From NCBI GenBank assembly GCA_036172245.1, contig JAYWIR010000040.1, positions 992,001 to 1,056,000 on the forward strand: a stretch of DNA of 64,000 nt, written 5' to 3'. The position numbers and the translations under genes were made by a program. The notes under the pieces were generated by a model that saw nothing but the letters and a program-made list of their open reading frames with translations, did no database searches and was not told the DNA's origin. Below are positions 12,436 through 64,000 of this stretch, one piece after another (within the stretch, counting starts at the first letter, position 1; every line of letters starts with the position of its first letter). This stretch comes from Raillietiella orientalis (lineage: Eukaryota).

Positions 12436-15400
12436 CTACGTTGCCACCCGGTCAAGCCGGGACGTTTATCGCAAACTGACAACCATTGCAGTGCAAGGCC
12501 TTTCTGCGGCCAAGACAACAAGGGACCTGCCGGGTCGTCGGTACGCAGACCGACTTGACTCTCCACGGCATCGGAGGGGGATGGGGAAAAAACAAAAGGA
12601 AACATAAAATAAATAAACAATAAAATTGAAAAAACAATAGTTCTTCGAAGGGTCGGGAAGGGATCACGGTCCCTTTGATTCCATCTTTTGCAGGATGCGA
12701 CGAGGTGCTTCTGCCTGTTTCCCAGGTGGGACCATCGGGTTGCTATTCGCAGGAGGCGAACCGCGTACTCGATGACGTCCGTATCGTTTGCATCTTTTAC
12801 TTCGTCGGATCCACTCCAGGCCGCCACAATACCGCGGATTCAGCTGAGCGCTGCTAAGGCTGCGGCTCGCTACGGGGCGTCCCGCACGAAGAGGAGCCGA
12901 AAAACATCTCCAGGAGGGCTGCCCTCCGGGATCCCGAGGGTCGTCCCGAAACGTTCCAAAAGGGGCCGGAGGGCGACACTGTCAAGAAGCAGGTTTGCGG
13001 GGAGGATTCCCGTTCCCCGCACCTGGCACAGTTCGGATTCACTCGGCCCGCTACCTGCGAATCGCGATCGGCTGGTCCCATCTGGGAGCTATGACGAGGG
13101 ACCTCGAGGGCATCCTGGAAAGGATGGTCTCTTCCTCACGCGGGCTGTGATCCGTTGCCGGCCTTCCAAATAGTTTCTTTCTTTTTTTGAATGTTTCATT
13201 TTTTTTTCTATTTGTTTTACCCCCTATCCCCTCCGCTGCCTTGGAGAGTCAAGCCGGTCTGCGAACCGGCTTCCTGGCAGGTTCCGTGAACTATTGGCGG
13301 TAGCCGGGCCTAGAACCGCAAATCCAAAGTGCTTAGTAATAAACACACCGTGAACGGCGTGACCGGGTGAGAACGACCCGTGTCCAGTGGTGGCGGCGCG
13401 CGTTGCAGGGGAGACCCCAGTGCAACAACATAAGCGCCGACTCCAGCCACTTTAGGGGAAGGACCCTTCTACCGGTTATCACTGGTGGTCATCCATCGAG
13501 ATGCCGGGAAGCTCTCCTTATTTCTTCAGTCCTCGCGGTAGGACGCTCGGGGTCGTGGCGTCCGCCAGCTCTCCCCTGGTCCAACAGCTCATCAACTTTT
13601 CTCTGCCTGCGATACGGCAAGAGACTTGCCACCTCGGCATCCGGCTGCTAACGAGGGCTCTCCGTAGGAAGGGCTGCGCCGTAGCTAGTCAGGTCGTCTC
13701 TGCCCACGTCCTCCTGGCTGGACACTCCAGGATCTCGGGCGTAGCGGCTGCGTAGCAGACGATTCCACGTCTCGTGGCTGCTCTGATTCACTACCGCCCA
13801 CGTGCCAACTCTTTCTTCCAGACATGCGCTGGAGTTGCCGCGGCTGCAGATCATCCACCCGTTCTCCTTCGCCAGCGCGGCCGTGCGTCCGAGTAGAAGG
13901 CCGCATCTTCTCATCTTCTTGCCGCGGCACATAGGATGAGATGCAATTCCTCCCGTTCCGGATACACGGCTGACGAGAAGACGGGCCGGAACGCACCAAG
14001 GGGTGCTCCAAAACTTCGCAGCGACGGCCAACGTTTGCCATCGCAGCTGAACTTCCATCCGCTCCAACGTCAAGAGTTCTAGAGCGCCATCCCGACGTGG
14101 AGCACACAAGTCCATCAAAGGGACTCTGGCCACCCGTTTCCCCAAACGGCGATGCGCACGAGGTCCTTCGTCCTTTTCTTCATTTCCACGGGAACGGAGA
14201 AAACAAAAAGTAGGGGGCGAAGGATGGGGGCCGCAAAGTTTGCGTTCCATACCGCGGCCCGTTCCGGCAAGTGAGACTTGCCCTCCAGGAACGGGCCGAT
14301 CGCCAACTCCACTTTCTGGAGACGATCCGCCCAGGCTTCTGACGGGCAGAAGTACCCCTACGGAACACTAAGGTACTACAAGTACCCGCCCGCACCCTCC
14401 TGCACCTGCAGCCAGCTTCTGGCTCGTGCCCCAACTTCCGCTCCCTCTGCTCGTTCGGCAAGCGCTCATGTGGTCGGCACGGGTGCGCCCGCTTCCTTTC
14501 GTGACGGAGGCGTTCCTCGTCCACGCAAACCGGGTCGTTCGTAGAGCTGCCCTCGGGCAGATGCAGCAGCATTGCTTCCGTGCTCACGGGACCAAGGACG
14601 TTTCCGAAGAAGCGGTCGATCGGTCAGCAACTCCGCAAGTGGTCGACAGCCGCCCACTTAATGGATTCACAGCCGTCCTCGTGCCTTCGCAACCTCCCGA
14701 CGCTTCGATGGTGTCGCGACCATCGACTTGCGGCTCATCCATCACACGGAACGGCTCACCGCTCAGCTGCTGTCTTTTCCCTTTCCTCCTTTTCTCGTTC
14801 CTGCAGTCCTCGGGAGAGGCAAACAAGCAAGAATCAGCCAGCGATGCTCCCGGTTCGCCATTTTTCCGCCAGCCTGCTGGCGTTTTGCTGAGAATCCTTG
14901 CGAGTCGGCCTCCGCTCCCCGCCGATCTGCGCGCGCGTGGCACCCGCGAGTGACGCGAAAATTCGCGCGCACCCCAAACGCGAAGCGTCGCGCGCCTCCC
15001 GCGCATCAGCCAATCAGGAGGCAGATTGGCATCGCACGCGAGCGACCTGCAGCATCCGATCGGATGGGCGATGCCGAGACTTCCTAGGCGGATGCGTCGT
15101 GGCGAAGCGCGCAGGCGGTTTTCGTCCGGTTGCTGGACCTCAGGATAGGCACCTATACTTGGATTATTTCAAGACATTAATGCACGTGATACGCACGTAC
15201 ATGGAGTTGTTGTGATCCCTCATCCAGTGTGTACCTACAAAGCAGCCAACAACTCGTTGGTATCACCACTCCCTAGAAATCCGTCTGTGCAAAGAACGTG
15301 GCTGTCACCAAGATGCACGTCCCTCAAGCTGGTGAAGATCTGAGCATGGTGAAATCAATCTGTAGCTGAATGTGCGTGGAATCAGCGCGCCTTCCTTTGA

Positions 15401-18400
15401 GTGTCGACAGCTTTCGGGATTTTTGATGGGCAGCGATTCGCGAGCGTGCGGCCGCTTCCGATGAAAGTGTCCCCGACGGGGAGCGTCCGCGCGTTCCCTT
15501 CGACTTCCGACTTCTCTCGCGAGGCACGAATGGCTCCTTCGCCTTCCGCAGCCGCTTTCTCGACAAGCGCGCCTTCACGCTCGCCAACCGACACTCCCAC
15601 GATCGAGTGGGATTCGCCGCAGTGGCCGATCCCGCTTTCCTGAAGAAACCATGCCGCGACCCCATTCGTGCTGGGAACTTCCCCACGAACATAGTTTCCG
15701 AGCGGGAACGGAGGTGCCTGGGAAGCGCATGCTGCTCCCAGCATCCCGAAAGGTGTTCCTGCTCGGATGGAGTGCAACTCCGGAATGACGTCAGCAAAGT
15801 GCGATGCCGACTGCAGGACAACCCATAATCCCGTAAGCGCGCGCCTGACCTGGATGCGCACCTTGCGAAGAAACCTTCTTCCGTCCGCCAACGGGTAACG
15901 CGTGAGAGGTTTCCATCCACTCTTCGCTAGCCGCCCACCCTAAACGGGTCGTCCACTTCTTTGCAGAGGGATTGGCGCCAAAGATTTGCATGAGGATCCC
16001 TAACTTGGCGCTTGGTCCGCAGTAGCACCGGTGGAGACTGTCGCGGAAGGTGCCTTGTGCCTTCCAGACCGTCCGGTGCAAGGGAAGCAAAGGAATTGCA
16101 GGATCAGTCGATGCAGGGGAAGAACGGGATAGGAAAATCAAGAGGCGTTCCAACGTGCGTCACAGGAGTTGAACGAACTGGTCTCCATTTCCGCGGAGCT
16201 GCAGGCATTCCCTCCCGTCGCCCGTCCCGGCCGTGTCTGATGTTTCCCATCTCCCGGCGCGTCTGGATGCGGATTCCTCTGTATCGTTGCAATCCGTGCT
16301 GAGTGCTGCTATCGGTGAGTTCCGGCAGCTTTGTGGATTGGCGCACCTGCATTGCTGGGAATGCACTTTTTATTTATTGTGCGAAGATGTAGCTCCTTGG
16401 GAGTGAGAATTCCCACGACTTCATCTGCTGTCCATCGACCCCGGAGAAGCCGGACGTGCGATCGGGATCCGCTTGACTGAGGTGTTCCTTCGGTGTCCAT
16501 TCAGAGCTCGCGTTCAGTCGCAGCCCCAATGCGGTCCAGAGAAGTTTCACATCTAAAGCTCGAACCGGGTCGCAGACATGTATGCTTCCGAAGAATTCCA
16601 CACGCTCCGGGAGCCTGAACATCTCCTGCTTGTAGCTTGTTACCATGGCGTCGTTATCCCCACCCCTTGCAGCAGAATTGGCCCCTTGCTGACCACCAAC
16701 TGCAGTCTTCGACGCTCGGGCAGCCTGAGCCGATGTCGCATCAAGCATTTCCGGTCCTCAAGAGACGCTCATCCTTGCTAGCGGGCTCATCCTTCCGAGG
16801 AAGGCGTTATGCAGGAAAGGCCACGCCCTCGCTTTGTTCTCGGTGACCCGCTCCCGCTCTGCAGAGTCGATGCTCGGTGTGTTGATCCCCTGGAGATGCA
16901 CCACTTGCGAAAGCTGCCGTCCCATGTGAGCTTCTAGCACGCGAGATCCGACAGCAGCAAGAAAGGGGGGGTTCTCCCTCGTTTCCCCGAAGTGACTGGA
17001 CGCGTCAAAAGAGAAGTTTGCAGCGTCTGCCGCCACTCGCACGTTGAGACGAAACCGTCAACGGAATGAAGATGGTGAGCTTCCATCCGCAGTACCGGTG
17101 ATCCACGGAGGGCACATCGAATCGGTTTTTCTCGTCCTTCGATGTCGGCTGGCCGAGAGCGTCCCGTCTCCGACGGTGTCCGGGAGTGCACCGCGCTCGC
17201 AGGACCGTGTGTCGGCGCAACCCACTACCGGAACCCAACATCCGCCAGGGAAAAAAGCGCTGAACGGTGGACAGAGGAGGCGAACGCCTTCTACTGACCC
17301 GCGACAATTCCTCGAATGCACTTTGGAAGGTGGGGGCCGAGATGCCGTTTTCATCAGGAAGCGAATCCCTTCCGCTCCCTCGTTCGGATGCCCGCTTCCC
17401 TTGAGCGGCAGGAAGGCGCTCAGCAGCTCGGTCGCTCTCTCAGGAGGAGGACGAAGAAGTGCGTTTGACAAGACCGAAATCCCTCGTGCGCAGGATCTCC
17501 AGTGGGTCAGATCGGAAGTGGAATGCAAGTCGCCGGCCAAGGGTCGCAGGGAAGCCCTTCTCTCTGTCAGCTGTCACTCCTGACAGCATCCCTGCAGTCC
17601 CTCGTCGCTCCGCAGTTGCAGATGCAGGCGGCGAACCTGTTTTCCTCTGGGTGCTGAAGAAAAAAAATGCCCTGAGAGACGTCCGAAAGCGAAGCGGCCG
17701 CCTCGGCGGACTTCTGCCTGTGGAAGGGAGAATCGACCGTCCGCACGAGGACGGCATCCCTTCGAAATTGCGCGGGGCCAATCGTTACAAGGGTGAAGAG
17801 GAGGAGCACTGTACGGCGACCACCGCAACGGTGAGCTGGCAGTAGGGACGAGGCCGAAAAAATTCCTAAAGTGAGCAAAAGTGCAGCGACCTTCTCCGCC
17901 GGCGTCGGTGGTGCCCATGCCATGGCGTTCGGTGCGTCGGCGTTTCACGAAGGAAGAGAATCACGTAGGCCACCATTTCGTAGCGCTTTATCGGCGAGAC
18001 GAGTGCTGCATTTCTCTCGCGGAGCGCTGTATCACCCACGCGAAGGAAATTCGCACGCTGAGATGAGGATCTCCATCGAGGGTGGCTGCGGAGCGAAATG
18101 TCACCGGACGGCTCCTCGGGAACACCTCCAACGTACAACACACTTCTGTCCTTCTTTCTTATGGAGGAGTGTTTCGACTCGTCGGCGATTTCCGCCAGTC
18201 CACGACAAACGCTTCTCACCAGGGGAATTGTGAAGATTCTGGTGGCTGGGTTTGCCGCCAAACTGCCGCAGGAAGATTCGCTTCCTCGTGGCTTCCTTGA
18301 ACCCGACCTTCCACATCGGAGATTCCCTTGCGGGAAACGGCAGAGAAAATCTCGGATGGACGGATGAACGAGGTGGCCGCTGCTTTCGATCCTTCCTGGC

Positions 18401-18892
18401 ATTTTCCGTGGTTCCGGCAGCTGCAGTCATCTTGCCAGCCCATGCTGCGCGCATCCGCGCCGTGGGCATTGCTTGCCTCCTCCGACACGAATACCGTTTC
18501 CTCCCGGATCGTGCAGCATCCACTTTCCAGACGTGAGATCGTTCATTGGGGCGCGCCCAAGTTCCCCACTGCCCCGTGACCACCTGGACACGGCGTGAGT
18601 CCAAGCAGCTGCCCATCCCCCCTCTCCGGTTCGGCACAGGTCGTAGTGTCGGCGGAATAACGACGCCGTGCGTCCGGACGACCTTCACACGCACACGTTT
18701 CGGGTGTTTCCGGCTCTTCACCCGATTGCTGGTCCATTCGCGCCACGCGGGACCCCACCGGAACACCCTCTCGTCTCTTCGGAGCCATCGTAGAATCGCC
18801 CGGCCATCGATGGTGCGAGCGTGCCAGAAGGTGCCAGGGAAAGAGTGCCAACGTCTGCAAATTCGCTTGCAGTGTTTGCGCGGAAGGACGAG
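12436..18892 (-). mobile_element. Near full-length degenerate L1/Tx1-like non-LTR retrotransposon
   Basis: ORF1 starts MAPKRR (~18788). APE remnants at ~15700-16380 (CYCGPS, SRSGARLRDY...SRHR...GCWEQ). RT remnants at 14050-15100 (MPICLL, VNPLSG...GV, *YLSVP, LCAPRRDGALEL). Zinc-binding C-terminus (LLHWGLPCNARR...NPNCARCGERE), then a structured 3' UTR. Many stops and frameshifts. Confidence 0.7.
13048..13376 (+). mobile_element. 5'-truncated 3' end of a related LINE inserted antisense into the zinc-finger region of the 12436-18892 element
   Basis: Encodes RYLRIAIGWSHLGAMTRDLEGILERM*, homologous to CFLRRATRWPHLGRLVKDLEGNLETM* of the 27.3 kb element. Followed by a T-rich tract, the hairpin UTR and AATAAA at 13338. 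Confidence 0.75.
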
Positions 18893-19059
18893 TCCTTCTC
18901 GCTCGGCGATCCGCCTCCCGACGCAGAAAACTCCTTACTTCTGTTCCTTAGAATACAAAAAAAGGAACGGTTGTCGTGTCCACAGATCCTTAAACTCCGG
19001 ATGAAAACTACGACTTGTATTCCCTCTCCGTTTTCAAGAAAACCAAAAAGTTACAAATT

Positions 19060-19600
19060 CGTAATCAGTTAGGGAGCATGACACTGAAAATGGGCCGAAC
19101 GACATTCTACATTTTTAGGCCCGCAGAAGAATTCAGTAGTCCCGGTCTTCTGATAAACTTTACGTGAGTGAAGGAGCAGAATGACACCAGAGCAGAACTG
19201 GAGCAGATGTCCGAGATCAAAATCACTAAGGAAACGAGTGCACATAAAATCAAGCATTCGCAGGTATTCGCTTTGAGATGACGTCCAACGTTCTCACCTC
19301 TTTACGCCACAGTCCACCAAAAGTACTGTGCCTCCACATTGGCGAATCATGTACCTGATTTGGCGTACTGCGAAATTTCGAGGGCGCATAGCCCTTAGGG
19401 GGATCGCGCGAAAAAACGGCATCTTTTTTGTGGCGACACGGAAACAGCTTGCCCTCTGGAACACGAACGAAGAGATTCCGCTTCCCGCTTCCGTACTGTT
19501 CCATAGACCTTTGAAAACATTTTAGTCTCACTGTCTGCAGCACTCCCGGGCGGTGTCCGCGATTTTCCTCGAAAGAGGACCTCACTCTTCCAAAGTGATT
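19060..19600 (-). mobile_element. Diverged LINE RT fragment related to 94-560 and 31014-31500 (mirror at ~58080-58620 +)
   Basis: Collinear shared blocks TTTCCTTAGTGATTTTGATCTCGGA and GTACGCCAAATC; peptide VRLKCFQRSMEQYGS vs LRLENLERALEQFGS. Confidence 0.55.
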
Positions 19601-20397
19601 TCTGCCCCTCTATAGAGGAAAATCAACCCATTTATAGCAAGAAAATATGATTTCTGTGATGCGAATATGGTGTAGCTTGCTCCGAGACTCACGAAAGACA
19701 GCTTTAGGGGGAACAAGTGATGCTGCTCAAAAGATCAAATACGTGTCACAACGCATAGCACGAAAAACGTGCAATTCAGGGTACGCCGAACTTGATATTC
19801 TTAAATGCAGAGTTGATCCCTTAAACAAAATAAAAACAAGAAAAACAAGAAAGAAAAGTTCGAAGACATTGGAAAACAAGGTTTTGAATGCAAAGAGGCT
19901 AGTCAACATACTTGAAATATGAGATACATTATATCAATGGAAAAATAGAATTCCGAATTCCCATTTGTAATTCCACGAAGAAAGTGCTCAGCTTGAGAGA
20001 TGCGCGCGATCTGAAACCGAATTCTGTTTGTGATTTTTCGCAGGAATCACGAAATACCCATCTTTTTCCTCGGTGGCAGAAGGTCCTTTTTTATCTTTCT
20101 TCCAACCAATCCACCTCTTTGCTAAAAAGAAGTTCGAATCAGAGTGGAATTTCGTCATCAGAAAGATGGTTTAACATATATTCAGTCTGTTATGGTAAGA
20201 ATGCCTCATGCATTTTAGAGATTCGATTCCGAGCTTCACAATTTGTTACATTTTCGTGCGCCGTTTCACAATCCCCCCAAATCAACTAGTCACCCTAAGT
20301 ATTAGTGCTTGGACTATTCGAACTGTTAGATTCGATCGCGAAGTCTTTCGTTCCACATTTGGCCGTTTTTTTGCCTTGTTACTACAACGGAGTGGAG

Positions 20398-23300
20398 ATG
20401 ATTTCAGTGGATTCCAAAACTGCTAAAAAACTTCCTGGTTCCTTTAAGAGGAGAACATCTGGGAAGACTGTTGTTTTCGTTTCAGTTGGTCCGCGGAGCG
20501 CAAGCAGTTTGGAGGATAGGGTGGGTGTGCTTTGCTGAGAGGTCCCACCAACTGTTCGGTTGCAGGAAAGCCAACGAAACGGAAACAGTATGAATTTTAC
20601 TGATTCCGCGGAGAGATATTCAAGAGATTTGATAGTTGATGTAAGTGCATTGCAGACGTTTTTGTAACATTTGGAGCTTGTCTAGCAAATTGTGTACTTC
20701 ATGCTGTACGTTTGAAGCATGTACATCACAAATTGATGCATAAGTGACGATTTCTGTGGCTGGCTGTGTGTTTCGTTGATACTTGTGTCTGCCATATGTA
20801 AAGTTGCGTAGGACTAAGGTTGCCTGTAATGTGTGAATGCAGTGCATGCTTTCATCGTTCAAGTGTCATGGAAATTCCGTGCTGAAGCGTAGCAAGCAAG
20901 CATCCCTTTCCATGCATGATCATTCCCTTTGTGATGCATGTATCCGATTCTCGAAATCATGGGCGGCACACGTATCGTGAGGCCTTTTGTCGGCAACATT
21001 TCTGTACTCTTGATCGTGTTGTTCATGAAAATGAATCGGTGGTTGGTAGAAGAAGATGATTTCATGTTCATTCCAAGTATTTTACAAAAGTTTGCCTTCT
21101 CTGTCCATTGCGTGAATGCTCTTTGCACATGTGAATGCCAATACTTGGCGATTGTCTCGACCCATTCTTTAATCCGCATTCGATTCACCAGAAGTTGCCT
21201 TTTGTGATTTGAGGTCTTTGCAGTAGGTCCGGCATCCCGAATGGTGTGCTCGTTCTATGAGTGGGTCTCTTGTAGGTGGTGCGTTTGAAAACAAACCAAT
21301 TCCATTTCCACGACTCGAATGGAAACAGATGGAATACATAAGTCTCTGTTTCCCTGTCAAACTACGGAAACGGAGTTTTTTTGGAACGGTGTGCATTTGC
21401 ATGAACGAAGCCGTGTAAGTGCAAGCAGCACTGCTTTCCTCATCGTTTCTTCGCTTTTTGCAGAAGCGTTTCTGATTTGTTTGCATAGCAGGAAGCATTT
21501 ATTGTGTCTTTCGAAAACAGTCGGTCGTATTGGTTCCCAGGAACAGCGTTGTCTTTTGCTAACTTGTTGGCTACGTAAGGGTGTTCTATGTATCTGAACT
21601 GTGTGATTGTGAGGCACCAAAAAATGAGGAGGAGGAGGATTCCTCCAGATGTCATGAGGAAGAAGAAGTAGTACCTTTTGTAGAAAAAGGTTTGTTGATG
21701 CATTGTGCTTTATTGTAGGTTGGCTTCCTTCATAGGAAGTTAGAAGCTAAAACTGAGGCTGTCATCATCTTGACTGAAGATCTGGAAAAATGTCACGTGG
21801 AAAGGGATTATTACAAAAATTTGTGCAAGAAACTGACCCATAAAATCATGGTAAGTCTGTTTTATGTGCAAATTGTGATCGATGGATTTCTAGTAATGAG
21901 CCATCTTAGTTTTATTGCGAATTTAGATCAAGGAAGTTCCCCACCTGAATAGCATGGATCTGGAAGACTCACAGAGTGAAGAGGAAGAGCCCAGTTACAA
22001 TTTGAAGTTTGAAGTGAAAAATTTGCGTGAGAAACTTCAAGAGGCACGTGGAGACATCAATGTGAGTACAGTTTTATGAATGGTATGCAAGCCAACACAT
22101 TGTGTTGCCAAGCAAGTGCTTTCCTGTGTGGTTGATTCGCATGTTCCCTCACTTTGTCAGTTTTCTTTATGTACTGGGAAGCCTGTACATGCCTTCAAAG
22201 TGAAGGAAACTCTTTAGGATCACATGGATAGGTGCAAGCACTTTCACAGATGCTTCCGTCCAATTTTGCGGATTGTGAAAGTGTGATGGATGGTAGCTTT
22301 CGTTTCTAGGTGTTTGGGTTCATTAGGAGAGGACGAAAGTTTAGTTTTTTGGGAACGCATGTAGTGCTAATGGCTGGCATGCAAGTGTATTGGAAACATT
22401 GCACGCTTGAGTCTTTCCATAGCTGCTGCACGAATTTTCTTTGCTGCATTGATCACTGAAAGAATTGTTCACGTTTGCAGTTTTTGCATTTTGATTTTTG
22501 AGCTGAAGCATTTCCCTTGCACACTTGAACTGATTGCTGGTAACAAACCAGTGAATGAGTTTAGTGTAATGTTTGGAAAAAAGAATTTCCATTGCTGCTG
22601 CATGGCTTGGGATTCGTTTTAACTTAGGACACCTAGTGATCCTATTCAGTCCACAATAGTGATTGCTCCCAAGTGAAAATTGGAAGCGTGCATCAATTGT
22701 GTCATTACTTCATCAAGTTGTGTATTACCTGTAACTGACAAGCATCATTGTGTAATTGATTGTTTGTTGACGAGTTGCGTGGAAAGGATGAATTCCTGGA
22801 AAAGAGGAAATCCCCACGAATCAGTGAAATCATTTTTGCTAATATAATATCTCTCACACCTGTTGCGTGTTTGCTGGAATGTGGGGGAATATATTGGGAT
22901 GAATGTGGTTGAAAAAGTGGAAGGGCAGGAAAGCTTTCCCAATATTAAGGTGAAGGTTGGATCCAGCAACGATCGTAGTTTGGAAAATGTTTTGCAGACT
23001 CGGGGTTTCATCCTGTTTTTTTTCTTTTTTGTATAGATATTGCGAAACGAATTGCATATGTACAAATCTTTGGATCAGGAAAAGGTGGTTTTGAATTCCG
23101 AAAATAGCATCAAAGAGAAAGATATGCTCCTGAAGCAAATTGAAAGACTTCAGCAGAAGGTATGTTGTTTTGTGTGTATTTTTTATGCAGTCTTTGATTC
23201 AGTGTTTTGCATTGGAGAACGATGTATCTTCCCTGTTGGATGAAAAAGAAGAACTGATTAAAGAAAAGGAAGTGTATAGAGAAAAAGCCACCCGACTGAA

Positions 23301-26670: not shown

Positions 26671-26740
26671 ATTTCGTGGGGCCCGCGCCTCTGCCTGCCT
26701 TGCTGTTGACGTTGTCCTTCGTGGGGGGGAGGAAAAGCAG

Positions 26741-26746
26741 AATAAA
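26741..26746 (+). promoter_or_regulatory. Candidate poly(A) signal of left CCDC149
   Basis: AATAAA 70 nt after the TAG stop at 26670. Confidence 0.55.
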
Positions 26747-49250: not shown

Positions 49251-49269
49251 CAAATCACCGATCGAATTG

Positions 49270-50490
49270 CACACCGCGCAATCGATTCACAGGATGTCGC
49301 GGTTCCCGTGGGGTCTGCCCCTTCGATACTGGAGCGAGCAACAGATCGTCCTCGGATGCATAGTCATACTAGTCAAGGAGAGCGGCTGGATGGTATGCCG
49401 CCTCGCCAACTCCACCGCATGCTTGGAGGAATCTGTTAGCGCAGAGGTGAGGTTGAATGCCCGGAGAAGCGACAGCTGGACCTGCCTGCGTTTTACGAAC
49501 AACGCCCCCTGTTCACAGCAGACATTCTGGAGTGTGCCGCCAGGAGCACGGGCAAGAGACGACCCCTTAGCTACTGCTTTGCCCTTCTTATGGAGGGCCG
49601 TTGCCAGCAACCGGACGACCAAATGGAAAGTCTCTGTCGGATCGCAGGCGGGGAGAAGATGGAGAAGAAGATGAGCGGTTGGACCAGGGAAGAGCTGACG
49701 GACACCACGAACCCGAGCATGCTTCCGCGTGGACTTTGAAGATAGGGCGAGCCGCTCGGTATCCCGACGGATGCCCTGAAGTGGCGCCCGGTGTTGAATG
49801 GATCCAGGATCTTCCCCCTCAACTGGAAGGAGTCGGCGCTTCTGCTGTTGCATAGCGGTCTTCCCTGCAACGCACGCCGCTACCACTGGACGCAGGGCAG
49901 ACTAAATCCTGAGTGTGCCAGGTGCACAGAACGGGAATGCCTCCCGCACCTGATAGTCGACTGTCTTACCCTCCTGTCTTCTTTGGGAGTGTTTCGGGAC
50001 GACCCTCGGGATCCCGGTCGGCAGCCCTCCCAGTGACGTTTTTGGCCTTCTCTTCGTGCGGGATGTCCTGCAGCCAGCTGCAGCCCTGGCAACACTTTGC
50101 TGCATCCGTGGGATTGTGGCGTCTTGGAGTGAAGCGCACGATGAAGATGCCAACGAGAAGGGAGTCATCGAGGATGCAGTTTGCTTCCTGCGGAGAGCAA
50201 CCCGATGGCCCCACCTGGGAAGACTTGTGAAGGACCTCGAGGGCAACCTGGAAACGATGGACCCTCCTCTCACTGGCAACTGATCACTTCCTGGCCCTCC
50301 AAAGTCTGTTTCTTCTTTCTTTCTGTTTTATTTCTCTTTTTGTTTTTTCCCCATCCCCCTCCACTTCCTTGGAGTCACGCCGGTCTGCGTACCGGCGACC
50401 CGCCAGGTCCACAGTTGTGTTGGTCGCAGTGAGGCCTCATACCACGTTTTCAGCAGGGTGGCTTCTTGGTGTAGCAGAGCAACAACGATG
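49270..50490 (+). mobile_element. Mirror copy of the 27105-28330 LINE 3' fragment
   Basis: Identical peptides in ORFs 49791-50036 and 50056-50283. Confidence 0.75.
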
Positions 50491-50850
50491 CGGCCTCCCA
50501 AGAGGTACCACACAATCGTTCAGCTGCACTCCTGCGGCGTGATGCATCGCCACGCTTACCTAAAAACTCGACGGAACGCTTGCAGGAGATGGTAGAGTTG
50601 GGGTCACCTGGAAAACAACCCTCGCGACATCAGTTTTGCCCTCGTACTTTTCTTCTTGACGGCAAGGACCGAAAGACCGGAAAGCTGAAACGCGCGCCAA
50701 TCCCAAAGGGACAATCGTGGGGAAAGGAATCGCTCCAGCATCGCTCGGGAGACGAATAAGCTCTCGAGTGTTACGGCGAACACGTGGAAAACCCTCGTCT
50801 CTCCGAGAGAAGCAGACGAGCAGTCTCGGTTGCGAGGCCTCTTCGAAACG

Positions 50851-50856
50851 TTTATT
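50851..50856 (-). promoter_or_regulatory. Candidate poly(A) signal of right CCDC149
   Basis: TTTATT on + strand, the mirror of 26741-26746. Confidence 0.55.
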
Positions 50857-50926
50857 CTGCTTTTCCTCCCCCCCACGAAGGACAACGTCAACAGCAAGGC
50901 AGGCAGAGGCGCGGGCCCCACGAAAT

Positions 50927-53271: not shown

Positions 53272-53328
<57 letters not shown>

Positions 53329-56300
53329 ATTATACCTGCACGGCAAACGGAATGGACCGGACAAATTTGCAAACAGGCTCACACTAAATGCAGATGCTTG
53401 TGCGTCCACATCGCACTGCACAGAATGAAGCAATCAGCTTCGAAAAAACGTCCAGGTTTTCACTTTTCTCTGTAACCTCAAGCACACAATCGCCACTCAT
53501 TCACGTTATTTCCATATAAGCGTTCAAACCACTGCAAATTCGCCGACCCTTAATCTGATCAATGCATCAAACGCATGTTCCGTTCTGTACAATCCTCCAC
53601 GAAAATAAAATTGCACAAACATTTCCACACATACAAAAAGGAAAAGTATTGGCACAGCATTTCATTTAATGAAATTCACTCATTCTAAGGAACCATCACA
53701 TTCCCATTGCGCACTGTATGAAAATACATTCAAATAAAAGCACTCAGTCTTTGCATTAAGGAAATTCATTACTTTTCAAAGTTTGAAGCTTCAATACAGT
53801 ACAAAGACTCTGAACACCGTGCAAACGCTTTTTCACCAAGTTTTCTTTCACGTTTACACCACAGATTGCCACATTTTCTGAGGAATGAACCAATGCCATC
53901 TTTAACAAATTGAAACAATTTACTTTAAAGAATTCCTTTCGCACGGTTGCGGTGTTTCATTTGATGCACTTATGCATTCTGGGAAGCGATGGATCAAAAG
54001 TGACAAACTTTTTGTTTCCCCTACAAAATAAATGCAATGGCATACAACACAGCACAGCAAGCCAAAAATAAACTCCTCAGAGCAGCCATAAATCGCAAGG
54101 AGAAAAAAGAGACACAGCATACATAAACGTGAAACAGGGCATTGCTTACCCTGTATTTGCAAATTGTTTGCAAAGTAAACTTTTTTTCCTCCTCCATTTG
54201 GCCAAGTCTCTCCTGGAGGTACCTAAAATGGTGACAAGGAGGAAAAGGGTTCACAAATGCAAGACAACTGAAAGAACAAGAAGAGGCTTCTACCTATTCT
54301 GCATCAAAAGAGCATCCACGTCTAAATATTTTTTATCCGAATCTTCATTATTCAAGAGTTCATTAACAGTGTGATTCAGTCGGGTGGCTTTTTCTCTATA
54401 CACTTCCTTTTCTTTAATCAGTTCTTCTTTTTCATCCAACAGGGAAGATACATCGTTCTCCAATGCAAAACACTGAATCAAAGACTGCATAAAAAATACA
54501 CACAAAACAACATACCTTCTGCTGAAGTCTTTCAATTTGCTTCAGAAGCATATCTTTCTCTTTGATGCTATTTTCGGAATTCAAAACAACCTTTTCCAGA
54601 TCCAAAGATTTGTACATATGCAATTCGTTTCGCAAGATCTATACAAAAAAGAAAAAAAACAGGATGAAACCCAGAGTCCGCAAAACATTTTCCAAACTAC
54701 GATCGTTGCTGGATCCAACCTTCACCTTAATATTGGGAAAGCTTTCCTGCCCTTACACTTTTTCAACCACATTCATCCCAATATATTCCCCCACATTCCA
54801 GCAAACACGCAACAGGTGTGAGAGATATTATATTAGCAAAAATGATTTCACTGATTCGTGGGGATTTCCTCTTTTCCAGGAATTCATCCTTTCCACGCAA
54901 CTCGTCAACAAACAATCAATTACACAATGATGCTTGTCAGTTACAGGTAATACACAACTTGATGAAGTAATGACACAATTGATGCACGCTTCCAATTTTC
55001 ACTTGGGAGCAATCACTATTGTGGACTGAATAGGATCACTAGGTGTCCTAAGTTAAAACGAATCCCAAGCCATGCAGCAGCAATGGAAATTCTTTTTTCC
55101 AAACATTACACTAAACTCATTCACTGGTTTGTTACCAGCAATCAGTTCAAGTGTGCAAGGGAAATGCTTCAGCTCAAAAATCAAAATGCAAAAACTGCAA
55201 ACGTGAACAATTCTTTCAGTGATCAATGCAGCAAAGAAAATTCGTGCAGCAGCTATGGAAAGACTCAAGCGTGCAATGTTTCCAATACACTTGCATGCCA
55301 GCCATTAGCACTACATGCGTTCCCAAAAAACTAAACTTTCGTCCTCTCCTAATGAACCCAAACACCTAGAAACGAAAGCTACCATCCATCACACTTTCAC
55401 AATCCGCAAAATTGGACGGAAGCATCTGTGAAAGTGCTTGCACCTATCCATGTGATCCTAAAGAGTTTCCTTCACTTTGAAGGCATGTACAGGCTTCCCA
55501 GTACATAAAGAAAACTGACAAAGTGAGGGAACATGCGAATCAACCACACAGGAAAGCACTTGCTTGGCAACACAATGTGTTGGCTTGCATACCATTCATA
55601 AAACTGTACTCACATTGATGTCTCCACGTGCCTCTTGAAGTTTCTCACGCAAATTTTTCACTTCAAACTTCAAATTGTAACTGGGCTCTTCCTCTTCACT
55701 CTGTGAGTCTTCCAGATCCATGCTATTCAGGTGGGGAACTTCCTTGATCTAAATTCGCAATAAAACTAAGATGGCTCATTACTAGAAATCCATCGATCAC
55801 AATTTGCACATAAAACAGACTTACCATGATTTTATGGGTCAGTTTCTTGCACAAATTTTTGTAATAATCCCTTTCCACGTGACATTTTTCCAGATCTTCA
55901 GTCAAGATGATGACAGCCTCAGTTTTAGCTTCTAACTTCCTATGAAGGAAGCCAACCTACAATAAAGCACAATGCATCAACAAACCTTTTTCTACAAAAG
56001 GTACTACTTCTTCTTCCTCATGACATCTGGAGGAATCCTCCTCCTCCTCATTTTTTGGTGCCTCACAATCACACAGTTCAGATACATAGAAGAACACCCT
56101 TACGTAGCCAACAAGTTAGCAAAAGGCAACGCTGTTCCTGGGAACCAATACGACCGACTGTTTTCGAAAGACACAATAAATGCTTCCTGCTATGCAAACA
56201 AATCAGAAACGCTTCTGCAAAAAGCGAAGAAACGATGAGGAAAGCAGTGCTGCTTGCACTTACACGGCTTCGTTCATGCAAATGCACTCCGTTCCAAAAA

Positions 56301-57293
56301 AACTCCGTTTCCGTAGTTTGACAGGGAAACAGAGACGTATGTATTCCATTTGTTTCCATTCGCGTCGTGGAAATGGAATTGGTTTGTTTTCAAACGCAAC
56401 ACCTACAACAGACCCACTCATGGAACGAGCACACCATTCGGGATGCCGAACCTACTGCAAAGACCTCAAATCACAAAAGGCAACTTCTGGTGAATCGAAT
56501 GCGGATTAAACAATGGGTCGAGACAATCGCCAAGTATTGGCATTCACATGTGCAAAGAGCATTCACGCAATGGACAGAGAAGGCAAACTTTTGTAAAATA
56601 CGTGGAATGAACATGAAATCATCTTCTTCTACCAACCACCGATTCATTTTCATGAACAACACGATCAAGAGTACAGAAATGTTGCCGACAAAAGGCCTCA
56701 CGATACGCGTGCCGCCCATGATTTCGTGAATCGGATACATGCATCACAAAGGGAATGATCATGCATGGAAAGGGATGCTTGCTTGCTACGCTTCAGCACG
56801 GAATTTCCATGACACTTGAACGATGAAAGCATGCACTGCATTCACACATTACAGGCAACCTTAGTCCTACGCAACTTTACATATGGCAGACACAAGTATC
56901 AACGAAACACACAGCCAGCCACAGAAATCGTCACTTATGCATCAATTTGTGATGTACATGCTTCAAACGTACAGCATGAAGTACACAATTTCCTACAGGA
57001 TTCTGGAAGACAAGCTCCAAATGTTACAAAAACGTCTGCAATGCACTTACATCAACTATCAAATCTCTTGAATATCTCTCCGCGGAATCAGTAAAATTCA
57101 TACTGTTTCCGTTTCGTTGGCTTTCCTGCAACCGAACAGTTGGTGGGACCTCTCAGCAAAGCACACCCACCCTATCCTCCAAACTGCTTGCGCTCCGCGG
57201 ACCAACTGAAACGAAAACAACAGTCTTCCCAGATGTTCTCCTCTTAAAGGAACCAGGAAGTTTTTTAGCAGTTTTGGAATCCACTGAAATCAT
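50927..57293 (-). CDS. CCDC149: CCDC149, right-arm inverted copy, ~454 aa
   Basis: Mirror exons 57171-57293, 55825-55956, 55614-55748, 54516-54638, 54294-54472, 54150-54222, 52714-52798, 52523-52658, 50927-51305. Same lengths and splice sites as the left copy; no stops or frameshifts seen. Confidence 0.88.
53272..53327 (+). repeat. Poly(A) tract, 56 nt, in intron 6 of right CCDC149
   Basis: Directly visible; absent at the mirror site 24331-24340. Confidence 0.95.
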
Positions 57294-58793
57294 CTCCACT
57301 CCGCTGTAGTAACAAGGCAAAAAAACGGCCAAATGTGGAACGAAAGACTTTGCGATCGAATCTAACAGTTCGAATAGTCCAAGCACTAATACTTAGGGTG
57401 ACTAGTTGATTTGGGGGGATTGCGAAACGGCGCACGAAAATGTAACAAATTGGAATCGAATCTCTAAAATGAATCAGGGATTCTTATCATAACAGACTGA
57501 ATATATGTTAAACCATCTTTCTGATGGCGAAATTCCACTCTGATTCGAACTTCTTTTTAGCAAAGAGGTGGATTGGTTGGAAGAAAGATAAAAAAGGACC
57601 TTCTGCCACCGAGGAAAAAGATGGGTATTTCGTGATTCCTGCGAAAAATCACAAACAGAATTCGGTTTCAGATCGCGCGCATCTCTCAAGCTGAGCACTT
57701 TCTTCGTGGAATTACAAATGGGAATTCGGAATTCTATTTTTCCATTGATATAATGTATCTCATATTTCAAGTATGTTGACTAGCCTCTTTGCATTCAAAA
57801 CCTTGTTTTCCAATGTCTTCGAACTTTTCTTTCTTGTTTTTCTTGTTTTTATTTTGTTTAAGGGATCAACTCTGCATTTAAGAATATCAAGTTCGGCGTA
57901 CCCTGAATTGCACGTTTTTCGTGCTATGCGTTGTGACACGTATTTGATCTTTTGAGCAGCATCACTTGTTCCCCCTAAAGCTGTCTTTCGTGAGTCTCGG
58001 AGCAAGCTACACCATATTCGCATCACAGAAATCATATTTTCTTGCTATAAATGGGTTGATTTTCCTCTATAGAGGGGCAGAAATCACTTTGGAAGAGTGA
58101 GGTCCTCTCTCGAGGAAGATCGCGGTCACCGCCAGGGAGTGCTGCAGACAGTGAGACTAAAATGTTTTGAAAGGTCTATGGAACAGTCCGGAAGCGGGAA
58201 GCGGAATCTCTTCGTTCGTGTTCCAGCGGGCAAGCTGTTTCCGTGTCGCCACAAAAAAGATGCCGTTTTTTTCGCGCGAACCCCCCTAAGTGTTTTGCGC
58301 CCTCGAAATTTCGCAGTACGCCAAATCAAGTACACGATTCGCCAATGTGCAGGCACAGTACTTTTGGTGGACTGTGGCGTAAAGAGGTGAGAACGTTGGA
58401 CGTCATCTCAGAGCGAATACCTGCGAATGCTTGATTTTATGTGCACTCGTTTCCTTAGTGATTTTGATCTCGGACATCCGCTCCAGGGCTGCTCTCGTGT
58501 CATTCTGCTTCTTCACTCACGTAAAGTTTATCAGAATTCCGGGATTACTGAATTCTTCTGCGGGCTTAAAAATGTAGAATGTCGTTCGGCCCATTTTCAG
58601 TGTCATGCTCCCTAACTGATTACGATTTTGTAACTTTTTGGTTTTCTTGAAAACGGAGAGGGAATACAAGTCGTAGTTTTCATCCGGAGTTTAAGGATCT
58701 GTGGACACGACAACCGTTCCTTTTTCTGTATTCTAAGGAACAGAAGTAAGGGGTTTTCTGAGTCGGGGGGCGGATCGCCGAGCGAGAAGGACT

Positions 58794-61700
58794 CGTCCTT
58801 CCGCGCAAGCACTGCAAGCGAATTTGCAGACGTTGGCACTCTTTCCCTGGCACCTTCTGGCACGCTCGCACCATGGATGGCCGGGCGATTCTACGATGGC
58901 TCCGAAGAGACGAGAGGGTGTTCCGGTGGGGTCCCGCGTGGCGCGAATGGACCAGCAATCGGGTGAAGAGCCGGAAACACCCGAAACGTGTGCGTGTGAA
59001 GGTCGTCCGGACGCACGGCGTCGTTATTCCGCCGACACTACGACCTGTGCCGAACCGGAGAGGGGGGATGGGCAGCTGCTTGGACTCACGCCGTGTCCAG
59101 GTGGTCACGGGGCAGTGGGGAACTTGGGCGCGCCCCAATGAACGATCTCACGTCTGGAAAGTGGATGCTGCACGATCCGGGAGGAAACGGTATTCGTGTC
59201 GGAGGAGGCAAGCAATGCCCACGGCGCGGATGCGCGCAGCATGGGCTGGCAAGATGACTGCAGCTGCCGGAACCACGGAAAATGCCAGGAAGGATCGAAA
59301 GCAGCGGCCACCTCGTTCATCCGTCCATCCGAGATTTTCTCTGCCGTTTCCCGCAAGGGAATCTCCGATGTGGAAGGTCGGGTTCAAGGAAGCCACGAGG
59401 AAGCGAATCTTCCTGCGGCAGTTTGGCGGCAAACCCAGCCACCAGAATCTTCACAATTCCCATGGTGAGAAGCGTTTGTCGTGGACTGGCGGAAATCGCC
59501 GACGAGTCGAAACACTCCTCCATAAGAAAGAAGGACAGAAGTGTGTTGTACGTTGGAGGTGTTCCCGAGGAGCCGTCCGGTGACATTTCGCTCCGCAGCC
59601 ACCCTCGATGGAGATCCTCATCTCAGCGTGCGAATTTCCTTCGCGTGGGTGATACAGCGCTCCGCGAGAGAAATGCAGCACTCGTCTCGCCGATAAAGCG
59701 CTACGAAATGGTGGCCTACGTGATTCTCTTCCTTCGTGAAACGCCGACGCACCGAACGCCATGGCATGGGCACCACCGACGCCGGCGGAGAAGGTCGCTG
59801 CACTTTTGCTCACTTTAGGAATTTTTTCGGCCTCGTCCCTACTGCCAGCTCACCGTTGCGGTGGTCGCCGTACAGTGCTCCTCCTCTTCACCCTTGTAAC
59901 GATTGGCCCCGCGCAATTTCGAAGGGATGCCGTCCTCGTGCGGACGGTCGATTCTCCCTTCCACAGGCAGAAGTCCGCCGAGGCGGCCGCTTCGCTTTCG
60001 GACGTCTCTCAGGGCATTTTTTTTCTTCAGCACCCAGAGGAAAACAGGTTCGCCGCCTGCATCTGCAACTGCGGAGCGACGAGGGACTGCAGGGATGCTG
60101 TCAGGAATGACAGCTGACAGAGAGAAGGGCTTCCCTGCGACCCTGGGCCGGCGGCTTGCATTCCGCTTCAGACCTGACCCACTGGAGATCCTGTTCGCGA
60201 GCGATTTCAGTCTTGTCAAACGCACTTCTTCTTCCTCCTCCTGAGAGAGCGACCGAGCTGCTGAACGCCTTCCTGCCGCTGAAGAGAAGCGGGCATCCGA
60301 ACGAGGGAGCGGAAGGGATTCGCTTCCTGATGAAAACGGCATCTTCGCCCCCACCTTCCAAACTGTATTCAAGGAATTGTCGCGGGTCAGCAGAAGGCGT
60401 TCGCCTCTGTCCACCGTTCAGCGCTTTTTTCCTTGGCGGATGTTGGGTTCCGGTAGTGGGTTGCGCCGACACACGGTCCTGCGAGCGCGGTGCACTCCCG
60501 GACACCGTCGGAGACGGGACGCTCTCGGCCAGCCGACATCGAAGGACGAGAAAAACCGGTTCGATGTGCCCTCCGTGGATCACCGGTACTGCGGATGGAA
60601 GCTCACCATCTTCATTCCGTTGACGGTTTCGTCTCAACGTGCGAGTGGCGGCAGACGCTGCAAACTTCTCTTTTGACGCGTCCAGTCACTTCGGGGAAAC
60701 GAAGGAGAACCCCCCCTTTCTTGCTGCTGTCGGATCTCGCGTGCTAGAAGCTCACATGGGACGGCAGCTTTCGCAAGTGGTGCATCTCCAGGGGATCAAC
60801 ACACCGAGCATCGACTCTGCAGAGCGGGAGCGGGTCACCGAGAACAAAGCGAGGGCGTGGCCTTTCCTGCATAACGCCTTCCTCGGAAGGATGAGCCAGC
60901 TAGCAAGGATGAGCGTCTCTTGAGGACCGGAAATGCTTGATGCGACATCGGCTCAGGCTGCCCGAGCGTCGAAGACTGCAGTTGGTGGTCAGCAAGGGGC
61001 CAATTCTGCTGCAAGGGGTGGGGATAACGACGCCATGGTAACAAGCTACAAGCAGGAGATGTTCAGGTTCCCGGAGCGTGTGGAATTCTTCGGAAGCATA
61101 CATGTCTGCGACCCGGTTCGAGCTTTAGATGTGAAACTTCTCTGGACCGCATTGGGGCTGCGACTGAACGCGAGCTCTGAATGGACACCGAAGGAACACC
61201 TCAGTCAAGCGGATCCCGATCGCACGTCCGGCTTCTCCGGGGTCGATGGACAGCAGATGAAGTCGTGGGAATTCTCACTCCCAAGGAGCTACATCTTCGC
61301 ACAATAAATAAAAAGTGCATTCCCAGCAATGCAGGTGCGCCAATCCACAAAGCTGCCGGAACTCACCGATAGCAGCACTCAGCACGGATTGCAACGATAC
61401 AGAGGAATCCGCATCCAGACGCGCCGGGAGATGGGAAACATCAGACACGGCCGGGACGGGCGACGGGGGGGAATGCCTGCAGCTCCGCGGAAATGGAGAC
61501 CAGTTCGTTCAACTCCTGTGACGCACGTTGGAACGCCTCTTGATTTTCCTATCCCGTTCTTCCCCTGCATCGACTGATCCTGCAATTCCTTTGCTTCCCT
61601 TGCACCGGACGGTCTGGAAGGCACAAGGCACCTTCCGCGACAGTCTCCACCGGTGCTACTGCGGACCAAGCGCCAAGTTAGGGATCCTCATGCAAATCTT

Positions 61701-64000
61701 TGGCGCCAATCCCTCTGCAAAGAAGTGGACGACCCGTTTAGGGTGGGCGGCTAGCGAAGAGTGGATGGAAACCTCTTGCGCGTTACCCGTTGGCGGACGG
61801 AAGAAGGTTTCTTCGCAAGGTGCGCATCCAGGTCAGGCGCGCGCTTACGGGATTATGGGTTGTCCTGCAGTCGGCATCGCACTTTGCTGACGTCATTCCG
61901 GAGTTGCACTCCATCCGAGCAGGAACACCTTTCGGGATGCTGGGAGCAGCATGCGCTTCCCAGGCACCTCCGTTCCCGCTCGGAAAGTCCGTTCGTGGGG
62001 AAGTTCCCAGCACGAATGGGGTCGCGGCATGGTTTCTTCAGGAAAGCGGGATCGGCCACTGCGGCGAATCCCACTCGATCGTGTCGTGGGAGTGTCGTTT
62101 GGCGAGCGTGAAGGCGCGCTTCTCGAGAAAGCGGCTGCGGAAGGCGAAGGAGCCATTCGTGCCTCGCGAGGGGGAGTCGGAAGTCGAAGGGAACGCGCGG
62201 ACGCCCCCCGTCGGGGACACTTTCATCGGAAGCGGCCGCACGCTCGCGAATCGCTGCCCATCAAAAATCCCGAAAGCTGTCGACACTCAAAGGAAGGCGC
62301 GCTGATTCCACGCACATTCAGCTACAGATTGATTTCACCATGCGCAGATCTTCACCAGCTTGAGGGACGTGCATCTTGGTGACAGCCACGTTCTTTGCAC
62401 AGACGGATTTCTGGGGAGTGGTGATACCAACGAGTTGTTGGCTGCTTTGTAGGTACACACGGGATTAGGGATCACAACAACTCCATGTACGTGCGTGTCA
62501 CGTGCATTAATGTCTTGAAATAATCCAAGCATAGGTGGCTATGCTGAGGTCCAGCAGCCGGACGAAAGCCGCCTGCGCGCTCCGCCACGAAGCATCCGCC
62601 TAGGAAGTCTCGGCATCGCCCATCCGATCGGATGCTGCATGTCGCTCGCGTGCGATGCCAAGTTGCCGCCTGATTGGCTGATGCGCGGGAGGCGCGCGGC
62701 GCGTCGCGTTCGGGGTGCGCGCGAATATTCGCGTCACTCACGGGAGCCACGCGCGCGCAGATCGACGGGGAGCGGAGGCAGACTCGCAAGGATTCTCAGC
62801 AAAACGCCACCAGGCTGGCGGAAAAATGGCGAACCGGGAGCATCGCTGGCTGATTCTTGCTTGTTTGCCTCTCCCGAGGACTGCAGGAACGAGAAAAGGA
62901 GGAAAGGGAAAAGACAGCAGCTGAGCGGTGAGCCGTTCCGTGTGATGGATGAGCCGCAAGTCGATGGTCGCGACACCATCGAAGCGTCGGGAGGTTGCGA
63001 AGGCACGAGGACGGCTGTGAATCCATTAAGTGGGCGGCTGTCGACCACTTGCGGAGTTGCTGACCGATCGACCGCTTCTTCGGAAACGTCCTTGGTCCCG
63101 TGAGCACGGAAGCAATGCTGCTGCATCTGCCAGAGGGCAGCTCTACGAACGACCCGGTTTGCGTGGACGAGGAACGCCTCCGTCACGAAAGGAAGCGGGC
63201 GCACCCGTGCCGACCACATGAGCGCTTGCCGAACGAGGAGAGGGAGCGGAAGCTGGGGGCACGAGCCAGAAGCTGGCTGCAGGTGCAGGAGGGTGCGGGC
63301 GGGTACTTGTAGTACCTTAGTGTTCCGTAGGGGTACTTCTGCCCGTCAGAAGCCTGGGCGGATCGTCTCCAGAAAGTGGAGTTGGCGATCGGCCCGTTCC
63401 TGGAGGGCAAGTCTCACTTCCGGAACGGGCCGCGGTATGGAACGCAAACTTTGCGGCCCCCATCCTTCGCCCCCTACTTTTTGTTTGCTCCGTTCCCGTG
63501 GAAATAAAGAAAAGGACGAAGGACCTCGTGCGCATCGCCGTTTGGGGAAACGGGAGGCCAGAGTCCCTTTGATGGACTTGTGTGCTCCACGTCGGGATGG
63601 CGCTCTAGAACTCTTGACGTTGGAGCGGATGGAAATTCAGCTGCGATGGCAAACGTTGGCCGTCGCTGCGAAGTTTTGGAGCACCCCTTGGTGCGTTCCG
63701 GCCCGTCTTCTCGTCAGCCGTGTATCCGGAACGGGAGGAATTGCATCTCATCCTATGTGCCGCGGCAAGAAGATGAGAAGATGCGGCCTTCTCCTCGGAC
63801 GCACGGCCGCGCTGGCGAAGGAGAACGGGTGGATGATCTGCAGCCGCGGCAACTCGAGCGCATGTGTGGAAGAAAGAGTTGGCACGTGGGCGGTAGTGAA
63901 TGAGAGCAGCCACGAGACGTGGAATCGTCTGCTACGCAGCCGCTACGCCCGAGATCCTGGAGTGTCCAGCCAGGAGGACGTGGGCAGAGACGACCTGACT
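58794..64000 (+). mobile_element. Mirror copy of the 12436-18892 LINE (truncated by window end)
   Basis: Reverse complement of 13687-18892; MAPKRREG at ~58896. Confidence 0.7.

Follow-up and report, generated by a model that had tools for sequence, protein, structure and literature searches.

The primate red and green opsins are paralogues under gene conversion that show a peak of divergence, and the Teshima-Innan model, as outlined in PMC3924837, describes homogenised introns beside divergent exons in such genes. Palindromes maintained by conversion have been described for human Y palindrome P6 (PMC3723533) and for Folsomia candida and Adineta vaga (PMC5490193, PMC7953838), and inverted triplications are represented by the yeast ODIRA and human DUP-TRP/INV-DUP rearrangements (PMC10766186). 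We analysed a window of 64,000 bp of the Raillietiella orientalis genome (positions 992001-1056000 of contig JAYWIR010000040.1, here C40) together with its surroundings in the same contig, where coordinates above 64000 continue the numbering of the window into the extended region. At this locus a block of 24-28 kb containing the gene CCDC149 is present in three copies, the middle one inverted, and four copies of a second gene, here called X, bracket it.

Like the opsins in the published outline of the model, the X genes are paralogues lying close together, in which introns and flanking DNA are homogenised and the exons diverge much more strongly, but they comprise four inverted and direct copies instead of a tandem pair, the divergence of their exons is far greater (dS about 1, protein identity 35%), and the X protein has no family found and is compared from one species. 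With the palindromes, as far as those reports characterise them, the locus shares gene-bearing inverted arms of tens of kb, a unique spacer and kb-scale identical tracts, whereas its arms are 98.2% identical instead of the above 99.9% given for human Y palindromes (PMC3723533), hold divergent exons that have been retained as well as a bubble that does not align, and are joined by a third copy. The mechanism classes concerned are well known, and the locus clearly illustrates a known process. A literature search on such a locus returned nothing on point, which does not in itself show absence from print.

Three copies of a CCDC149 block

The window had initially been annotated as a giant imperfect palindrome, and the coordinates given for its inverted arms and spacer proved exact by self-BLAST and alignment, with position 13687 merely mirroring the window edge. 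Self-BLAST paired 13687-24335 with 64000-53340 (minus strand, 98.3%) and 24335-33238 with 53273-44398 (minus strand, 95.8%). The arms were also rightly described as something other than an exact fold-back copy, as they differ within the window by 435 substitutions in 19,511 columns and by 48 indel events including ragged ends. In the contig the full arms span 28 kb, with arm A at 5197-33238 (+), comprising the homogenised core and the inner gene X2, and arm B at 44398-72475 (-), of which 44398-64000 lies in the window and which ends at C40:1064475; they differ by 494 substitutions in 27,918 columns (1.8%) and 50 indel events and flank spacer 1 (33239-44397, 11.2 kb).

The assembly does contain the inverted repeat, but as part of a +,-,+ triplication, and the claim of a two-arm palindrome fails. 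Outward of arm B, a unique bubble is followed by X4 and then by copy C at 77409-101447 (C40:1069409-1093447) in direct orientation (+), and contig-level comparison gave three local copies in a zig-zag with the middle one inverted. The triplicated core (6415-30744, +) occurs in A, inverted in B and again in C, the copy profile across the locus is 2x-3x-2x, and the spacers of the amplicon are 11.2 and 6.1 kb long. The junction between B and C is sharp, and imperfect microhomology there amounts to about 4 bp at most. The sequence beyond the end of C at 101447 had no match to A 30745-33238 or to spacer 1, the flanks were not mirrored over the 60 kb on the left and about 55 kb on the right that were examined, and the locus lies mid-contig in 2.0 Mb.

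The duplication of a whole gene was confirmed in both window arms and extends to a third copy beyond them. CCDC149 (PF09789), of which three intact copies and no others were found in the genome, is predicted at 20590-26670 in A (+, nine exons, 430 aa, with the first exon and start codon modelled), at 50927-57101 in B (-) and at 91247-97367 beyond the window (+). Profile positions 1-300 of PF09789 were matched exon by exon and in order, with three exons above the curated cut-off. Intron 6 of copy B carries a 67-bp poly(A)-containing insertion at about 53272-53340, and the copies show 5 synonymous differences against 1 replacement difference (P = 0.002). CCDC149 is usually single-copy, and here the family has three near-identical intact copies. 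The tripling is most simply read as a passenger effect. In the account of PMC5145144, the worm orthologue is a protein of the ciliary base.

The X genes at the edges of the copies

The edge segments carry X, a predicted five-exon gene of signal-peptide type with four intact copies, all at this locus. X1 lies at 448-1917 (-, five exons, 258 aa, hydrophobic N-terminus), X2 at 31376-32842 (-, 258 aa), X3 at 44796-46265 (+, 258 aa) and X4, the mirror partner of X1, at 75890-77294 (+, 238 aa, 35-36% protein identity to X1-3). The presence of pre-existing repeats at the edges was supported by self-BLAST, in which 94-2335 recurred at 31014-33258 (+) and 44398-46627 (-), and a fourth edge segment lies at 74258-77141. 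The derivation of these repeats from transposable elements did not stand, since genome DNA and protein searches matched them only at this locus (a lower bound, as the DNA search skips very common words), the frames tested had no Pfam match, and the repeats carry an intact spliced gene. An isolated relic of X exon 5, interrupted by an in-frame stop, was found at 18952-19164 (+), with copies at 58520-58732 (-) and 89978-90190 (+).

Compared with X1-3, X4 has a dS of 0.95-1.1 and a dN/dS of 0.5-0.6, and dN is below dS at P = 6e-5. Its identity to X1-3 is 445/700 in exons against 571/680 in introns (P = 6e-18 for X1/X4), with intron 3 at 89-90% and the upstream DNA at 96% (1334/1395). Exon 2 of X2 (32583-32726) is 62-66% identical to X1 and X3 with surrounding introns at 88-96%; against X1 alone the exon matches at 87/140 positions and the flanking introns at 111/118 (P = 4e-10), and 22.5 of 31.8 synonymous sites differ. 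Plain erosion of the 83% inner edge was dropped as an explanation because most of that edge is X2 exon 2. X3 is a mosaic (P = 2e-20), resembling X1 from exon 1 through intron 2 and X2 across exons 4 and 5, and the four X genes contain three deeply different exon-2 types.

The hydrophobic N-terminus suggests that X is a secreted protein. Protein and profile searches found no homologue: Pfam gave no match to the edge-segment frames tested, none of 272 candidates passed when proteins of 111-356 aa only were searched with the X4 exon 4-5 frame, two exons gave no usable Atlas match, and there was no PDB sequence match. One profile match among 1.84 billion representatives, to a tandem-repeat protein, covered positions 3-19 only and was rejected as chance summation. 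The predicted structure of exon 4 (pLDDT 48.9, mostly strands) was too poor for a fold search; we take its look to be CUB-like, as an impression only. The locus points to an unannotated four-member X family of secreted type whose variants appear to be actively retained.

Probable exchange between copies and proposed origin of the locus

The cores are 98.6-98.8% identical among the copies. Over 23,873 columns, private substitutions numbered 128 in A, 172 in B and 164 in C, with 3 additional three-state sites. The odd-one-out copy changed in 143 runs against 312±10 in 2000 shuffles, and when clustered sites were thinned and the ends dropped there were 73 runs against 121±6 (minimum 99 in 5000 shuffles), a switching in tracts as expected from ectopic gene conversion. 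The longest identical tracts measured 1352-1573 bp, where roughly 410-460 bp were expected. This switching and the mosaics in X look like conversion between copies, a process that the initial annotation had named as known from sex-chromosome palindromes. Conversion is here inferred from one assembly, and recombination among alleles likewise yields mosaic patterns. Private sites had no GC excess of the kind that GC-biased conversion would leave (195 strong-to-weak and 163 weak-to-strong changes, unpolarised). The right end of C decays to 88-92% over its last 148 bp, with 68 variable sites per kb against about 15, and erosion at the outer A/B edge is only slight (7/172, 3/200 and 0/200 differences).

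On balance, we regard the locus as probably a genuine old local amplicon whose copies still exchange sequence by ectopic gene conversion. An inverted duplication on an X gene cluster would have mirrored X1-core-X2 as X4-core-X3 around the 11.2-kb spacer, and the core would have gained a further copy in direct orientation, joined to arm B on its outer side, directly past the X4 stop codon. Later ectopic conversion among the copies, in tracts between a few hundred bases and about 1.5 kb long, would keep the core with its passenger CCDC149 at the present identity, and would reach the edges of certain X exons without being retained across them (X2 exon 2 and the coding exons of X4). The retained divergence of X exons most likely reflects distinct X proteins kept by selection; as a dN/dS below 1 does not point to positive selection on X, a passive barrier due to divergence may also play a part. 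If confirmed, ectopic conversion would here make an old duplication look young, with 98-99% arms beside synonymously saturated exons, and both the peak-of-divergence model and the tract lengths of an invertebrate could be tested on the locus directly. A bolder version, which we consider rather unlikely, is that the palindrome is as old as a dS of about 1 and would work as a conversion-driven diversification cassette, storing versions of an orphan secreted protein and reshuffling their exons, with X3 as one chimera, while the same exchange keeps uniform 24 kb of DNA carried along as a passenger, together with a tripled housekeeping gene.

A tentative alternative that deserves weight is that the old paralogues X1, X2 and X4, standing in opposite orientations, gave rise to a recent template switch during replication (ODIRA or DUP-TRP/INV-DUP-like), which would have generated arm B with a new X3 as well as copy C and been followed by a secondary deletion and some conversion. 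Possibly, then, the X family alone is ancient and the CCDC149 triplication is about as young as its 1-10% divergence would imply. The copy order and profile, the sharp join of B and C and the closeness of X3 to X1/X2 throughout all fit such a course, and in the rearrangements described in PMC10766186 the middle of three copies is likewise inverted, the profile is 2-3-2, one junction lies in low-copy repeats and one is near-blunt, and spacers were enlarged to 1.1-34.9 kb after secondary rearrangement. A dispersed genome-wide repeat at 12438-13700 is shared by all three cores and differs from its relatives by only 15-18% (82-85% identity to the best other copies). This agrees with a core duplication that postdates the X family, unless the insertion was carried between cores by conversion. 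Against a young amplification, neither A 30745-33238 nor spacer 1 is resumed after C, so that one more deletion has to be assumed; it would be a coincidence that X1 and X4 mirror each other at almost the same distance from the core; the copy ends are more diverged than the middle; and the likeness of the X1/X4 upstream DNA calls for conversion anyway. In comparison with the ODIRA and DUP-TRP/INV-DUP cases, to the extent that PMC10766186 sets them out, the two-copy flanks here are inverted instead of direct, the middle copy is the longest, the reference is not resumed after the third copy, and the copies are diverged and apparently long-standing instead of de novo; the junctions there have short inverted repeats 40-80 nt apart or microhomology, and the locus here has spacers of kilobases and an imperfect match of a few bases at the join of B and C.

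An assembly artefact, in which haplotypes or chimeric molecules were joined in alternating orientation across the whole structure or for copy C alone, appears improbable. The assembly contains redundant products, since C198 is a palindrome of 13,056 bp at 100.000% identity that matches the end of C21 exactly and the end of C3 recurs in C141, and the core divergence of 1.2-1.4% falls within the allelic range of small invertebrates. However, these redundant duplicates are 99.995-100% identical and situated at contig ends, whereas the locus is less similar, mid-contig and without mirrored flanks, which makes a haplotype mis-join unlikely. Private substitutions and separate breakpoints mark each copy, and three deep exon-2 types in four X genes are too many and too old for two alleles. 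Copy C also lacks the segment 19398-19783 (+), and at its junction (about 90409-90445) an inverted copy of the left flank of this segment pairs in a perfect stem of 16 bp, a test in which none of 3999 tiled windows of 56 nt reached 12; this resembles the templated inverted insertions of snap-back repair type presented in PMC5728401 and likewise counts against an artefact. Reads from one run (share 0.06) on 19000-38900 gave scattered contigs, with depth in 16 of 30 bins and none across a junction, and are evidence neither way. The mis-join named in the initial annotation as its main alternative is weakened by the flanks, the private substitutions and the exon-2 types.

A two-arm palindrome of sex-chromosome type that arose from a transposon-derived repeat at its inner edges is highly improbable: inverted arms around a unique spacer, the conversion-like mosaic and the LINE-like remnants in the spacer would suit it, but its transposon and two-arm parts are largely refuted by edge-repeat matches confined to C40 that lack a Pfam match and carry an intact spliced gene, by the three copies and by an arm identity lower than that of human Y palindromes.

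Spacer, bubbles and dispersed repeats

Spacer 1 has no second copy within the 224-kb region. It contains decayed LINE-like pieces, with a weak zf-RVT match at 34912-35490 (-, E = 0.002, below the cut-off), and a genome-wide repeat at about 34610-35450. In its AT-rich island at about 38200-41800, no gene was identified and no match exceeded the cut-off. Two weak matches were seen in this island, with E of 0.005 and 0.05. In the GC-rich core, 14 long frames had no clear third-position bias and the frames tested had no Pfam match, although the core may hold further genes. Between the X1 upstream DNA and the core lies a unique bubble of 1693 bp (3504-5196), and the mirror bubble at 72476-74257 is similar in length (1782 bp); no homology was found between the two in DNA (scores of 29 and 24 against shuffled maxima of 29 and 34) or protein (best E = 0.04). 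The repeat at 12438-13700 has a relative at 27110-28222.

Inverted triplication in the extended window

The genome searched comprised 210 Mb in 491 contigs (2,009,156 bases in the contig bearing the locus), and the window was examined together with 60 kb of left flank and 100 kb of right flank. Comparing the window with itself paired 13687–24335 with 64000–53340 at 98.3% and 24335–33238 with 53273–44398 at 95.8%, both on opposite strands, with further copies of 94–2335 at both inner edges. The inverted-repeat coordinates of the initial annotation were thereby confirmed, and the arm alignment within the window contained 435 substitutions (225 of them transitions) in 19,511 columns, unevenly distributed. 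When the flanks were added, arm A spanned 5197–33238 (+) and arm B spanned 44398–72475 (−; positions above 64000 continue the window numbering along the contig), with 494 substitutions and 50 indel events in 27,918 columns. A third copy, C, was found at 77409–101447 (+), corresponding to A 6415–30744 minus 387 bp. The outer end of B adjoins the start of C directly, with imperfect microhomology of at most ~4 bp.

Beyond the core, the part common to all three copies, the mirror continues in 664–3503 and 77141–74258 (83%), which are parted from the core by unique stretches of 1693 bp (3504–5196) and 1782 bp (72476–74257) that had no detectable homology when compared. The remaining flanks did not mirror each other over the 60 kb on the left and about 55 kb on the right, and the sequence past C does not return to that of A. 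Also past C, a 755-bp fragment at 102644–103398 forms a fourth partial copy of core 14386–15139; it matches copy B at 99.6%, lies in the opposite orientation to copy C, and may have donated a B-specific tract. The orientations of the three copies and the anatomy of the flanks together define a +,−,+ triplication whose spacers measure 11.2 and 6.1 kb. Of the palindrome proposed initially, the whole gene in the arms and the conversion-like exchange were retained, while the third copy and the genic nature of the edge segment revised it.

Each core also contains a 160-bp inverted pair (87%; 11631–11789 and 18729–18890 in the window). A dispersed family with internally inverted halves lies at 12438–13700 and 27110–28222 and has dozens of genomic copies at 79–85%. 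GC content is strongly mosaic (31% to 67% across 4-kb bins), the introns and flanks of the edge gene X being GC-rich and the core gene CCDC149 lying in AT-rich DNA (42%). An AT-rich island in spacer 1 (38200–41800) resembles the CCDC149 gene body in composition and yielded no coding match above the cut-off. Decayed LINE-like frames were seen at 34912–35490 (−), with a weak zf-RVT match, and at 42236–42625 (−), which presumably has a reverse-transcriptase look and had no Pfam match.

Genes of the edges and the core

The edge segment, taken initially as TE-derived, is a gene, since DNA and protein genome searches (lower bounds for common repeats) gave no match outside the locus and an intact gene was modelled in all four copies. 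Its frame is open in the fourth copy at 44% amino-acid identity. Alignment and modelling gave five exons with 16/16 GT-AG introns and no internal stop in any copy: X1 (1917–448, −), X2 (32842–31376, −) and X3 (44796–46265, +), each of 258 aa, and X4 (75890–77294, +) of 238 aa. In the comparison of X1 with X4, dN was below dS (P 6e-5), which supports X as truly coding. In each protein the N-terminus is the sole strongly hydrophobic part (mean hydropathy 2.1–2.6), followed by three matching cysteines, on the basis of which the products are putatively secreted. Sequence and profile searches and structure modelling gave no family, homologue or usable fold, and each core holds a lone X exon-5 remnant with a stop.

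The PF09789 (CCDC149) profile was matched exon by exon in the core, and of 18 candidates scored in a genome search 9 matched; they comprise three exons from each of the three copies, and none lies outside the locus. The model has nine exons, 430 aa and GT-AG introns, and is open in all three copies, which do not differ at the exon-5 acceptor codon. Six coding sites vary, five synonymously and one by replacement (Q/L at 120), where the neutral chance of one replacement or fewer is 0.002; exons vary less than introns (6/1296 against 59/4785, P 0.014). The worm orthologue has been located at the ciliary base (PMC5145144). An intronic 67-bp insertion at 53272–53340, present in copy B only, includes 56 consecutive A bases and a short tail without another match in the 224-kb region.

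Signals of probable conversion

In the three-way core alignment, A, B and C were the odd copy at 128, 172 and 164 sites, respectively, with 3 three-state sites. These labels ran in tracts (143 runs against 312±10 when shuffled), also in the 185 sites left after removing both ends and sites less than 20 bp apart (73 runs against 121±6), and the longest runs of 12, 24 and 35 were matched in 0 of 10,000 permutations. Pairwise divergence was 1.28, 1.23 and 1.42%, with identical tracts of up to 1573 bp.

The X genes show a sharper signal. X4 differs from X1–X3 at 64–65% of residues with dS of 0.95–1.1, whereas intron 3 is 89–90% identical and, between X4 and X1, the 1.4 kb upstream is 95.6% identical. 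Exon 2 of X2 is 62–66% identical to that of X1 and X3, with synonymous sites near saturation, and its bordering introns are 88–96% identical. X3 is mosaic, its 5′ half resembling X1 and its 3′ half X2 (P 2e-20). Because dN/dS is 0.5–0.6, selection on X would be the retention of old differences rather than demonstrated positive selection. Homogenised introns beside diverged exons resemble the primate opsins, in whose introns conversion is described as prevalent and whose divergence peaks at the selected exon (PMC3924837).

Origin of the locus

We consider it on balance probable that an old palindrome, with mirror partners X1/X4 and X2/X3, later gained the third core, and that conversion would have homogenised all copies except where X exons were retained. 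The equal-length, unalignable unique stretches fit sequences that long ago ceased to undergo conversion. In the main, though less probable, alternative, an inverted triplication like those of ODIRA or DUP-TRP/INV-DUP (described in PMC10766186) arose more recently, seeded by X paralogues that were already old and followed by secondary deletion; this is favoured by the repeat common to the cores, 82–85% identical to its relatives, and by the mild outer-edge erosion. Under both readings the structure is real and conversion is required. The locus appears to behave as a palindrome maintained by conversion, with divergence peaks of the opsin type, and we assigned it to neither Y-type palindromes nor DUP-TRP/INV-DUP because it lacks the strict identity of the former and the flank arrangement of the latter.

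An assembly artefact is improbable: a mosaic by itself fails to distinguish paralogues from recombined alleles, but a head-to-head haplotype join would give mirrored flanks, which were not observed, three deeply different exon-2 types among four X genes are incompatible with two alleles, and at the deletion in copy C the adjoining left flank recurs in inverted form, giving a perfect 16-bp stem. Tiling the region with 3999 windows of 56 nt gave no stem reaching 12 bp, the tiles being out of register with the junction itself. The junction resembles the inverted-flank products described for snap-back synthesis-dependent end joining (PMC5728401).

Artefact-type duplicates do occur in the assembly; they attest to its high base accuracy and bear no resemblance to the present locus. 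Contig C198, of 32 kb, is a palindrome whose 13,056-bp arms agree at 100.000% and are identical to the final 13 kb of C21; it has a further short fold-back at 12590–13521, and is an artefact or else a real, very young palindrome that broke the assembly. C141 is a redundant contig, 99.995% identical to the end of C3 across the 40 kb that were compared (C3:7378691–7418691).

Published examples of palindromes come from a springtail and a bdelloid rotifer, with few genes in those of parthenogens (PMC5490193, PMC7953838). When two blind 200-kb samples were screened for inverted pairs of 1 kb or more with ≥90% identity, contig C1 yielded three and C12 none, and neither sample contained a pair of at least 5 kb. 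In regions chosen for other reasons, the end of C3 carries a 5-kb inverted pair (96%) with several older inverted and direct pairs, and C9:3554146–3561800 carries a 1.9-kb inverted pair (99.9%) with a 3.9-kb spacer.
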